64,000 nt of DNA from assembly GCA_000004695.1 (NCBI GenBank), contig CM000154.2, forward strand, positions 4,128,001 through 4,192,000, given 5' to 3'. Under the pieces are notes generated by a model, which was not told the origin of the DNA, did no database searches, and saw nothing but the letters and a program-made list of their open reading frames with translations. This DNA is from Dictyostelium discoideum. Lineage: Eukaryota. The stretch's first letter is position 1; the number at the start of each line of letters is the position of its first letter. This document shows positions 12,984 to 18,775 of this stretch, piece after piece. The translations under genes and the position numbers were made by a program.

Positions 12984-15263
<2,280 letters not shown>

Positions 15264-15281
15264 TAAATAGATTTAGGATTT

Positions 15282-15330
<49 letters not shown>

Positions 15331-15536
15331 GATTAATTTCTTTGTACAGTGTTAAAATATATAAAGAAATAATAGTTTATTGTATGTTTCTTTTTTTTTT
15401 TTTTTTTTTTTTTTTTCCCAAAAGCACCAGTTTTTTTTTTTTTTTTTTTTTTATTTACAAAAGATTATTTCGATGTTTTTTGGAAAAAATAAATAAAAAT
15501 AAAAAAAGAGGATGCAATACAATTGTTGAAAGGATT

Positions 15537-15733
15537 TTATCTCCATAATCCAAATCCTCTCCAACCACCACGACCACCAGATTGTGGAACATCATCAAAT
15601 GTACCACTACCACCAAAATTGGATCCACGTGAGTTCACTAATTCTGATTAAAAAAAAAAAAGAAAATAAGTAAATATAAATTTTTTTTTCTTTTTGTAGA
15701 TTTTATGAAATTACCATTGATTTGACAGTGCAT
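15537..15733 (-). CDS. putative 41-aa Gly/Arg-rich small protein (2 exons)
   Basis: Minus-strand exon 15733..15715 (ATGCACTGTCAAATCAATG), then GTAATT donor, a 71-nt intron and AG at 15645/15644. Exon 15643..15537 gives MHCQINELVNSRGSNFGGSGTFDDVPQSGGRGGWRGFGLWR*. The exon has about 45% GC, well above the surrounding sequence. Confidence 0.4.
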
Positions 15734-15762
15734 AGCTTAATTATTACTATTATTATATTTAC

Positions 15763-15807
<45 letters not shown>

Positions 15808-16191
15808 AAAAATAAAAAAAAATGAAAAAATGAAAAAATGAAAAAAAAATAATGAAAAAGATTTGTGATCAAAAGATATTTATTTTTATTAGTAATTTTT
15901 TTATTTTTTTCACCTAAAATTTTTTTTTTTTTTTTTTTTGACACAAAAAATCACTTTGTTTCGTTGAAATAATTTTTTCAAAATCACAAATAATTCTGCA
16001 AAGATAAACGTTAATTTTTTTAAAATAAAAAAAACAATGGTCACCACAACAAAACAACTCTAAAAAAAGATAATATGGGGTTTTTTTTTTTGGTTTTAAT
16101 TTTTTTTTTAAATTTTAATTGTAAGGTTTTTTAATTTTTTTTTTTAATTTTAATTTTAATTTTAATTTTAATTTTTACCCTTTTGAAACCG

Positions 16192-16230
<39 letters not shown>

Positions 16231-16313
16231 CAATAATAATTACAAAAAGATATAATTAATTTAAATATTTTTTATTTTAATTATTATTATTTTTATTTTT
16301 TTTTTTTTTTAAT

Positions 16314-17798
16314 ATGAAAAATATAATTATTTTTATTTTTTATTTTTATCTTTTATTTTTTAAAAATAAAGAATGTTATGGTCTTGAAATGACAATTTTT
16401 ATTGAATTTGATAGTGTTCAAATATATAACAATTTTGAATGTGGTGGGTCACTTGAAATTGAATTGAAAAATGGTACATTTTGGCAAAATAAAACAGATC
16501 AATATCCACCATGTAAATCATTTTATGATGCATCACAAAGAATTTCGCAGTATAATAATTATTTAAAAAAATATAGAAATGTGAAAACAATAGTTTTATT
16601 AAATTATGATTGGAAAAATGTAATTTTAAAACCATCTGCAGGATTTTATATTCAAAATAATTGTTTCTTTCAAATTAAACTTTTAAATGATACAAATTCA
16701 AATACAATTTCAATTGATGGTCAAAATTTAAATTATTATATTGCGTTTATTACAATTGATTTTAATGTAAATAATGAATTATATTGTGATGATGGTGAAC
16801 AACCACCACAACAAACACAACCACCACAACAAGAACAACAAGAACAAATAATTATACCAGTAAGATTTAAATTAGAAAATTTTAAATTAATAAATTTTGA
16901 TAGTGAATTCATATTGGTTCAAAAAAGTTATAAAGAATTTAAATTTAAAAATAAATATCAGTTTGTTTCATTTCAATTAAATTCAATAATTACAAGTAAA
17001 TCAAGTTTTTTATATGAAAGTACTTTACATGATGATGATTTTCAAATTCAATATTTAATAAATGATTGTCATTTTTCAAATAAATCTAGTGAAAATGGTT
17101 TTATAATATTAGGACATGACCCATTCATTATTAATAATTGTACATTTAATAATATAAAATCAGGATTACCAATTATATATATTGATAATTTATCAATTAC
17201 CAATTGTTCATTCAATAATATAATAGTTATTGGTAATAATAAATCTATCATTGAAGTTGCTAATTTTGGATCATTTAATAATATAAAATTTAATAATTTT
17301 ACAAGCCAAACATTATTATTACAATCATTAGATTCAATTACATATAATGAAAGTTCATTAAAATTATCAAATATTCAAATAAATAATAATAATAATAATA
17401 ATTTATTTAATATTAATTTTAAAAATGATAATAATTATTTTAATAGTTTTGTAGAATTAAACCAAATTTTTATAAATAATTCATTAAATAATTTAATTTT
17501 AATTTTAAATACATCAAAATCATTTATTATTGTTGATAATGATTCATTAAATACCTTTTTATTAAATTCAAAATTATTATTTAATGGTACAAATAATATT
17601 ATACTTTTAAATAATAAAAATTATTCAACTATTAAAGAACAATTAGAATTTATAAATAATTTAAATAACTGTACTAATTGTTTATTTTCAATAAATGGTC
17701 ATAATATTAGTACAACTATAATTAAAAAAGATTCTTCGGAGTTTAAATTAGATGGTGATTCATATAAAGAAAACAAAGGTTTTAATAAGATGTTTTAA
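16314..17798 (+). CDS. hypothetical secreted Asn-rich protein (494 aa) with a signal peptide and repeated NNI(K/I) beta-helix-like units
   Basis: Intronless ORF. The N-terminus MKNIIIFIFYFYLLFFKNKECYG is a typical signal peptide. Repeated CTFNNIKSG / CSFNNIIVIG / GSFNNIKFNNF units and many N-x-S/T sites. Confidence 0.6.
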   Translation: MKNIIIFIFYFYLLFFKNKECYGLEMTIFIEFDSVQIYNNFECGGSLEIELKNGTFWQNKTDQYPPCKSFYDASQRISQYNNYLKKYRNVKTIVLLNYDWKNVILKPSAGFYIQNNCFFQIKLLNDTNSNTISIDGQNLNYYIAFITIDFNVNNELYCDDGEQPPQQTQPPQQEQQEQIIIPVRFKLENFKLINFDSEFILVQKSYKEFKFKNKYQFVSFQLNSIITSKSSFLYESTLHDDDFQIQYLINDCHFSNKSSENGFIILGHDPFIINNCTFNNIKSGLPIIYIDNLSITNCSFNNIIVIGNNKSIIEVANFGSFNNIKFNNFTSQTLLLQSLDSITYNESSLKLSNIQINNNNNNNLFNINFKNDNNYFNSFVELNQIFINNSLNNLILILNTSKSFIIVDNDSLNTFLLNSKLLFNGTNNIILLNNKNYSTIKEQLEFINNLNNCTNCLFSINGHNISTTIIKKDSSEFKLDGDSYKENKGFNKMF

Positions 17799-17958: not shown

Positions 17959-18072
17959 AAAAAAAAAAATTTTAATTATTTAGTTAAGTTTTTTTTTTTT
18001 TTGTCCTTTGCTTCTGTTGTTTTTTTTTTTTCACCCTTTTTTCTTTTTTTTTTTTTTTCCCAACTTTTGATT

Positions 18073-18271
18073 TTAAATATCGGAACCAAATGTATTTTCA
18101 CCGCTATAGCAAATATATAAAAAGCCATCTTCATCTTTATGAGCGTCATATATTGAGGATAAAAGTTGACTTGATGGTGGTAAGTTATTCTTATTTACAA
18201 ATAAAAAAATTGCCTTTTGTTCATTATGATCGGAATCATCTAAATGTTTTCTAATTTCCATTATAAAATTC

Positions 18272-18317
<46 letters not shown>

Positions 18318-18775
18318 TAATTGGTTAGTATCCTACTTTTTTTTTTTTTTTTTTCCTATTGTACATACAGTTATGACCATATTTGATGGTGCAAGGAATT
18401 TCTTTTTATTAATATCTGGTACATCACTATTTGCAGCTCTTTCGACAATAATCTAAAAAAAAAAAAAAATAATAAAAAAAAAAATAAATAATAAAAAACA
18501 ATTAGACTATTTTGAAATTTAAAATTTAAAAATAATTTATAAATAATAATAATAATACACATACTGGTAATCTATCCTTATATCTATTTCTAATTTTTGA
18601 TGATATTAATTTTCTTTTTTCTGTTACAATAAAAAAAAAAAAAAAAAAAATGTATTAGTGTGTGGGAAATTTTTTTGGGTGGATAATAATAATAATAATA
18701 AAAAAAAAAATAGAAAAAAAAAAAATACATACCAAGAGAGTACTCTTGTTTGAATGATTTTGAAAGTAAGGCCAT
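18073..18775 (-). CDS. atg8: Atg8/GABARAP/LC3-family ubiquitin-like autophagy protein (126 aa, 4 exons)
   Basis: Exons 18775..18733, 18620..18565, 18452..18369 and 18270..18073. Donors are GTATGT x3; acceptors are acAG, tttAG and aatAG. Spliced product: [126 protein letters not shown]. It aligns to the Atg8 consensus (FEKRK…RIPVIVEKAE…KYLVP…KAIFLFVN…LPP…[15 protein letters not shown]) with the scissile Gly followed by 3 residues. It is divergent, possibly the atg8b-type paralog. Confidence 0.9.

Follow-up and report, generated by a model that had tools for sequence, protein, structure and literature searches.

Does a short GC-rich island in the intergenic DNA of Dictyostelium discoideum encode a protein that genome annotation has overlooked? 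The island lies within the window, the 64,000-nucleotide stretch of D. discoideum DNA that we analysed (21.8% GC overall), and an initial annotation had read it as a two-exon gene for a 41-residue peptide. Comparison with the genomes of related species suggests, with good confidence on our part, that the minus strand of this intergenic region carries a genuine micro-gene, spliced and protein-coding. Most probably it is a real gene that annotation has missed, an orphan which, as far as we have seen, is restricted to one clade.

Anatomy of the locus and what one genome can say

The proposed gene structure could be reproduced to the base. Exon 1 (15733..15715, minus strand; 19 nt, ATGCACTGTCAAATCAATG) consists of the ATG at 15733..15731 and 16 further nucleotides. 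It codes for MHCQIN and the first base of Glu7 and, because it is 19 nt long, places the intron in phase 1. The intron (15714..15644, minus; 71 nt, 12.7% GC) runs from a GTAATT donor through a polypyrimidine tract to an AATCAG acceptor, and exon 2 (15643..15537, minus; 107 nt) adds 35 codons (ELVNSRGSNFGGSGTFDDVPQSGGRGGWRGFGLWR) and a TAA stop at 15539..15537. The spliced coding sequence of 126 nt yields 41 amino acids and the stop, with the product MHCQINELVNSRGSNFGGSGTFDDVPQSGGRGGWRGFGLWR. Exon 2 is GC-rich, as had been claimed, but its GC content is 42% and not about 45%. The description of the locus as a GC-rich island in AT-rich intergenic DNA is borne out by a GC content of 31%, compared to 9–14% in 200-nt windows on either side. 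A second AG lies 6 nt 3' of the acceptor (15638..15649, minus: cAG AATTAG/TG), in frame and kept in all four species in which we find the gene. It could be an alternative acceptor, whose use would remove Glu-Leu.

The micro-gene, on the minus strand, is flanked by two genes on the plus strand: it lies tail-to-tail with the first, which ends at 15263, and head-to-head with the second, whose long ORF begins at 16314 (annotated start 16389). An in-frame TAA is found 6 nt 5' of the ATG in the window sequence, and a purine occupies position -3. The immediate 5' flank (15805..15734, minus), which from its position and conservation may be a core promoter or 5' UTR, contains a 37-nt run of T (15805..15769, minus) and a conserved box, TAAATATAATAATAGTAA, just 5' of the ATG (15761..15744, minus). 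On the other side, a putative 3' UTR (15536..15450, minus) begins straight after the stop with the block AATCCTTTCAACAATTGTAT, conserved in the four-way alignment, and ends in an AATAAA (15455..15450, minus) that the sequence suggests is the poly(A) signal. In the scheme that we envisage, transcription would start in the ~580-nt region common to the micro-gene and its head-to-head neighbour, the 71-nt intron would be removed, and polyadenylation ~85 nt after the stop, near 15455..15450, would give an mRNA of ~250 nt. Translation of this mRNA would produce a soluble, probably disordered peptide of 4.4 kDa.

Taken on its own, the D. discoideum sequence makes a weaker case than had been thought. 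The phase-correct splice had been considered hard to explain by chance; this argument failed, because an in-phase ATG...GTA exon is present 50–300 nt upstream of 44% of the AG dinucleotides in the AT-rich non-ORF DNA of the window (16% under stricter rules), and the phase by itself is thus no evidence. The codon usage of the proposed frame, which is built of GGT, CGT, AGA, TTA and CCA codons, gives a log-likelihood ratio of +18.6 bits against intergenic trinucleotides, and the island falls in the top 1.9% of 102-nt stretches outside long ORFs for coding-like codon usage. However, the antisense frame scores +19.1 bits, since the third codon positions of the two frames coincide, and codon usage does not tell the two strands apart. 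The GC island is not a strong argument against chance when used alone. The single-genome evidence for the micro-gene is only suggestive, and it is the cross-species sequence conservation that lifts it above chance.

Conservation of the frame in related species

Our comparison used a second D. discoideum assembly (GCA_054883475.1), in which a 22.9-kb stretch of chromosome (L001) is 99.6% identical to the window, and loci from other species that were located by way of the genes on either side of the island. The upstream neighbour's orthologues brought in D. cf. discoideum (L002) and D. firmibasis (L003), and those of the downstream neighbour brought in D. citrinum (L004) and D. dimigraforme (L005). 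The related assemblies belong to the comparative set of PMC12745789, according to which the protein distance between D. firmibasis and D. discoideum is about that between mouse and human. Judged by the C-terminal portion of the upstream neighbour, D. cf. discoideum is 94% identical to D. discoideum, D. citrinum 91%, D. dimigraforme 90% and D. firmibasis 84%, which makes D. firmibasis the most distant of the five. The four species with the micro-gene are close, with a dS of only ~0.4 in the neighbouring gene and much of the non-coding flank conserved as well. The two D. discoideum sequences also differ by clustered G<->T and A<->T changes and a 7-nt indel (window 16078..16200, L001 6003..6119); as all of these lie in low-complexity DNA, one of the sequences seems to contain an error of sequencing or assembly here.

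Conservation in related species had been set beforehand as a test of the two-exon gene, and we find the gene intact in three further species. In D. cf. discoideum, D. citrinum and D. dimigraforme the orthologues are syntenic, with the same two neighbours, position and strand, and exon 2 lies at L002 12512..12406, L004 9356..9226 and L005 9331..9192, respectively. All the spliced ORFs are intact and encode peptides of 41/41/49/52 amino acids (here and below in the order D. discoideum / D. cf. discoideum / D. citrinum / D. dimigraforme); the three other products are MHCQINELVNSRGSNYGGTFDDVPQTGGRGGGGWRGFGLWR in D. cf. discoideum, MHCHINELVNSRGSNFNCDSGGSGGSFDDPPQSSGRGGGGWRGFGGLWR in D. citrinum and MHCHIDELVNSRGSNFNCDSGGGNGGSFDDTPSGGGARGGSFGWRGFGGFWR in D. 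dimigraforme. Exon 1 is 19 nt long in every species and follows the pattern ATGCACTGTCA[A/T]AT[C/T][A/G]ATG, then GTA, with 16 of its 19 columns invariant (84%) and a mean pairwise identity of 0.91. The introns measure 71/77/94/71 nt at 7–14% GC, and in all four the GT donor, the AG acceptor and the phase are kept. Exon 2 opens with AATTAGTGAACTC and closes with TGGAGATAA in each species, keeping the TGG AGA TAA end, and it retains a GC content of 41–46% against a background of 7–14%. Invariant columns make up 84% of exon 1 and 58% of exon 2, compared to 31% of the middle of the intron, where the gap blocks do not come in multiples of 3.

The pattern of insertions and deletions points to a reading frame. 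Exon 2 is 107/107/131/140 nt long, so that the lengths differ by 0, 24 and 33 nt, all multiples of 3, and in a codon-blind MAFFT alignment of the four species each of its six gap blocks (24, 18, 3, 6, 6 and 3 nt) is a multiple of 3 as well. In the intron and flanks this is true of only 7 of 37 gap blocks (19%; hypergeometric P ~3e-4 for the difference from exon 2), a contrast to be read with the caveat that several of the exon 2 indels fall in GGT-type triplet repeats, where slippage by three is expected whether or not the DNA is coding. Among the six frames only that of the micro-gene is open in all four species, and reading through the unspliced intron meets stops in every one of them; the antisense frame is broken in D. 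cf. discoideum and D. citrinum, and the remaining frames contain stops throughout. The two-exon model is thus the sole reading that survives comparison with the three other species.

In D. firmibasis we found no micro-gene, either at the syntenic locus L003 or at a further locus, L006, which together cover 44 kb of the genome. Synteny breaks at L003 12139..12461: after the upstream neighbour's orthologue come an unrelated 378-aa gene and a polyketide synthase, and neither the micro-gene nor the 469-aa head-to-head neighbour is present in the interval. L006 holds a paralogue of the head-to-head neighbour (30% identical), with no copy of the micro-gene beside it. We regard gain of the gene in the discoideum/citrinum/dimigraforme clade, and its loss or relocation in D. 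firmibasis, as equally plausible.

The suggestion that the product is too short for standard ORF callers fits the state of the annotation: at this site the annotated assemblies from which L001, L002, L004 and L005 come all lack a gene call. The head-to-head neighbour, for its part, is annotated in four assemblies from an internal ATG (window 16389), and has an in-frame ATG further upstream (window 16314..16388, plus strand; L002 13199..13270; just upstream of 10001 in L004 and L005). The extension adds 24–25 codons that resemble a hydrophobic signal peptide (MKNIIIFIFYFYLLFFKNKECYGLE) and are kept in all four species, and from this sequence the annotated starts of the neighbour are probably too short.

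Coding and non-coding constraint

The alternative that fares best holds that what is conserved here is a non-coding element, either a pair of exons from a small non-coding RNA that is spliced, or a cis-regulatory block of high GC content that acts on the flanking genes, with an ORF that is incidental and untranslated. We regard this as unlikely, and substitution rates speak for both sides. Between D. discoideum and D. citrinum the dN of the micro-gene is 0.08, compared to 0.15 for the neighbouring gene. Its dN/dS is 0.30–0.40 in four of six species pairs, a ratio drawn from only ~40 codons with a Gly-rich middle that aligns ambiguously; the neighbouring gene shows 0.40–0.52. When D. dimigraforme is compared to D. 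cf. discoideum and to D. discoideum the ratio rises to 0.93 and 1.47, respectively, again over ~40 codons and the same ambiguous Gly-rich alignment, and these values of about 1 count in favour of the non-coding reading. Furthermore, dS in the micro-gene is 0.08–0.32 as against 0.38–0.42 in the neighbour, and because synonymous positions have thus changed less in the micro-gene than in the neighbour, constraint at the nucleotide level must act in addition to that on coding. The first 29 nt of exon 2, which hold the palindromes CACGTG and GGATCC, show one change across the four species, and the invariant AATTAGTGAACTCACGTGGATCCAATTTT is an example of possible non-coding constraint. Conservation also reaches beyond the ORF into the TAAATATAATAATAGTAA box, ~30 nt after the stop in the four-way alignment, and a block further upstream.

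A purely non-coding element does not, however, readily account for the way in which the frame is preserved. The exon 2 indels come in threes, unlike those of the surrounding non-coding DNA; start codon, stop and reading frame survive in each of the four species, whereas every one of the other five frames is broken in at least one; the fast-evolving spacer is bounded exactly by GT and AG, with the phase kept despite its change in length; and the GC content of exon 2 is held far above its background. Nor did we find the structure of an RNA. The folds have z-scores of -0.29 (sense) and -1.45 (antisense), revealing no stable structure, and folding of the alignment gave a covariation term of -0.31 kcal/mol with nearly all pairs invariant. 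When scored at the gathering threshold, Rfam yielded nothing in the window, and permissive settings over 15250..16330 gave only chance-level matches with E from 0.37 to 6, while a tRNA scan found no tRNA. The absence of a protein homologue from everything that we searched, described below, is the remaining point in favour of a non-coding element.

The upstream block itself (16005..15940, minus; TCTTTGCAGAAT.ATTTGTGAT ... TT.ATTCAACGAAAC) lies ~210–270 nt 5' of the ATG, and its cores are invariant in all four species. It contains no ATG on either strand in the window and has no Rfam match. The block could be a promoter element shared by the head-to-head pair, or it could be a non-coding first exon joined to an AG at ~15747, since the T run and the conserved ...AATAATAG/TAA before the ATG resemble a polypyrimidine tract and an acceptor.

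Another explanation sees exon 2 as a relic in decay, either what is left of a once larger gene (its last exon) or a fragment of a pseudogene, in which the GC content and the ORF are still uneroded and an ATG and a GT lie upstream by chance. An in-phase ATG..GTA exon before an AG is indeed common, an open frame of 35 codons is not rare in DNA of 42% GC, and the syntenic site in D. firmibasis has no copy. Against this, a relic must have stayed intact in four lineages at a dS of ~0.4, with exon 1, the splice sites and the stop all kept and with only frame-preserving indels, and we detected no paralogue or parent gene in the window (tblastn, blastn), the other loci or the protein libraries. These points make the relic very unlikely in our judgement.

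We rejected, as barely credible, the proposal that the plus strand is the coding one, in the form of a Pro-rich terminal exon (...YLHNPNPLQPPRPPDCGTSSNVPLPPKLDPREFTNSD*) such as an alternative 3' exon of the gene ending at 15263: its frame is open over 15520..15651 in the window and matches the minus strand in codon usage, but it has no ATG, is interrupted by stops in D. cf. discoideum (…NVPP*LDP…) and D. citrinum (…PRPLD*GG…), and would extend an upstream gene that is never annotated past its stop in four assemblies.

The predicted peptide and its possible roles

The peptide of the proposed micro-gene has two conserved ends joined by a variable middle. The N-terminal 16-mer, MHC[QH]I[ND]ELVNSRGSN[FY], is followed by a Gly/Ser linker that gains and loses whole codons and by an acidic FDD.P motif, and the conserved C-terminus, GWRGFG(G)[LF]WR, is aromatic and arginine-containing. 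Across the four orthologues glycine makes up 24–29% and arginine 8–10% of the residues, lysine does not occur, and the pI ranges from 6.0 to 8.0. None of the four has a signal peptide or a hydrophobic segment (the maximum 9-residue Kyte-Doolittle average is 0.36–0.39), indicating that the peptide is neither a membrane protein nor classically secreted. The expected tryptic peptides of the product include MHCQINELVNSR, GSNFGGSGTFDDVPQSGGR and GFGLWR.

Searches for relatives were uniformly negative. The 41-aa peptide had no homologue in a word-indexed protein collection, and an exhaustive phmmer search with the exon 2 peptide against 1.84 billion representative proteins found no true homologue; its sole match, a bacterial repeat protein, was rejected because only the low-complexity FCGSATVADLPQGNG repeats are matched. 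No Pfam family reached E<=10 for the three orthologues searched, and the best match in a profile search of the PDB (E=0.9) is no relative. A metagenome scan with a conserved 27-mer gave 0 matches, no transcript-derived contig was on record for a 57-aa bacterial-style ORF overlapping exon 2 and the 3' UTR, and literature queries with the peptide strings across 8 million papers, and on smORFs of Dictyostelium, returned nothing relevant. An exact-sequence look-up of the peptide and an orthologue also gave no match. Because control proteins from the window are likewise missing from that collection, this last result says nothing about the annotation of AX4.

In several respects the micro-gene resembles those of eukaryotic smORF microproteins (PMC10730196, PMC4359375): its ORF is far under the 100-codon (or 50-aa) cut-off and is missed by automatic annotation, it is recognised by conservation of its frame across species, and it is predicted to form a short dedicated transcript unit in intergenic DNA. 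It differs from this class in that the ORF is split by an intron after 19 coding nt, and in that it is seen only in the discoideum/citrinum/dimigraforme clade and known here from sequence alone. Many characterised microproteins are single-pass membrane peptides, whereas the product of the micro-gene has no transmembrane helix.

The C-terminal third (SGGRGGWRGFGLWR), rich in Gly, Arg and aromatic residues, recalls the RGG/RG regions of RNA-binding proteins such as fibrillarin and GAR1. Bona fide RGG boxes carry several RGG units, and di-RG or di-RGG motifs are defined by at least two units spaced 0–4 residues apart. D. discoideum has RGGWRG and both D. cf. discoideum and D. citrinum have RGGGGWRG, so that in these three species an RG follows the RGG at a distance of no more than 4 residues. 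The likeness is limited, however, to one RGG and one RG; in D. dimigraforme (RGGSFGWRG) the spacing is 5 and is not kept, and unlike fibrillarin or GAR1 the peptide has no attached RNA-binding or other domain and no sequence homology to them. A different comparison is with the Trp/Arg-rich antimicrobial peptides indolicidin and tritrpticin, given that Dictyostelium preys on bacteria. The micro-gene product is similarly short and has a W-R-G-F-G-L-W-R cluster, but it has no signal peptide or pro-region, its net charge is near neutral (in keeping with the pI range above), and the rest of it is rich in Gly, Ser and Asp. Finally, the HssA/2C/7E family of Dictyostelium consists of small Gly/Ser-rich proteins with Cys-Gly repeats. 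The micro-gene product is likewise small, glycine-rich and lineage-restricted, yet it is half their size, lacks Cys-Gly repeats and has no detectable similarity to them by Pfam or phmmer.

With two conserved motifs joined by an indel-tolerant linker, together with the acidic FDD.P, the peptide suggests a protein that binds a partner through short linear motifs. On the basis of composition and motif conservation, we tentatively propose a disordered microprotein whose RG/aromatic C-terminus might bind RNA or else a protein surface of acidic or aromatic character; this is a possibility in which we place little confidence. A role as an enzyme or as a membrane protein is not expected. A more doubtful idea concerns origin as well as function, namely that the micro-gene is a young clade-restricted orphan under dual protein and nucleotide constraint, which arose after the split from D. 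firmibasis, perhaps at the same time as its head-to-head neighbour and possibly de novo out of AT-rich DNA between genes. Its peptide, with a conserved R-x-S site (SRGS) and a Trp/Arg tail, could then serve in signalling or against bacteria after release by an unconventional route. Genes for small factors of this type have been hard to find in Dictyostelium.

If confirmed, the micro-gene would add one more protein-coding gene to one of the best-curated genomes of any model organism, and it would mean that intron-split ORFs of ~40 codons escape current annotation pipelines. The close Dictyostelium genomes now available (PMC12745789) are sufficient to recover such genes by frame conservation alone, and a genome-wide scan for GC islands in AT-rich intergenic DNA with conserved GT-AG boundaries and indels in multiples of three is therefore worthwhile. 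An orphan peptide with two sharply conserved short motifs is, furthermore, tractable for tagging and knockout. As a landmark for placing the locus in the reference genome, there is an Atg8 (PF02991) gene on the minus strand at ~18047..18736 of the window, some 2.3 kb away from the micro-gene.
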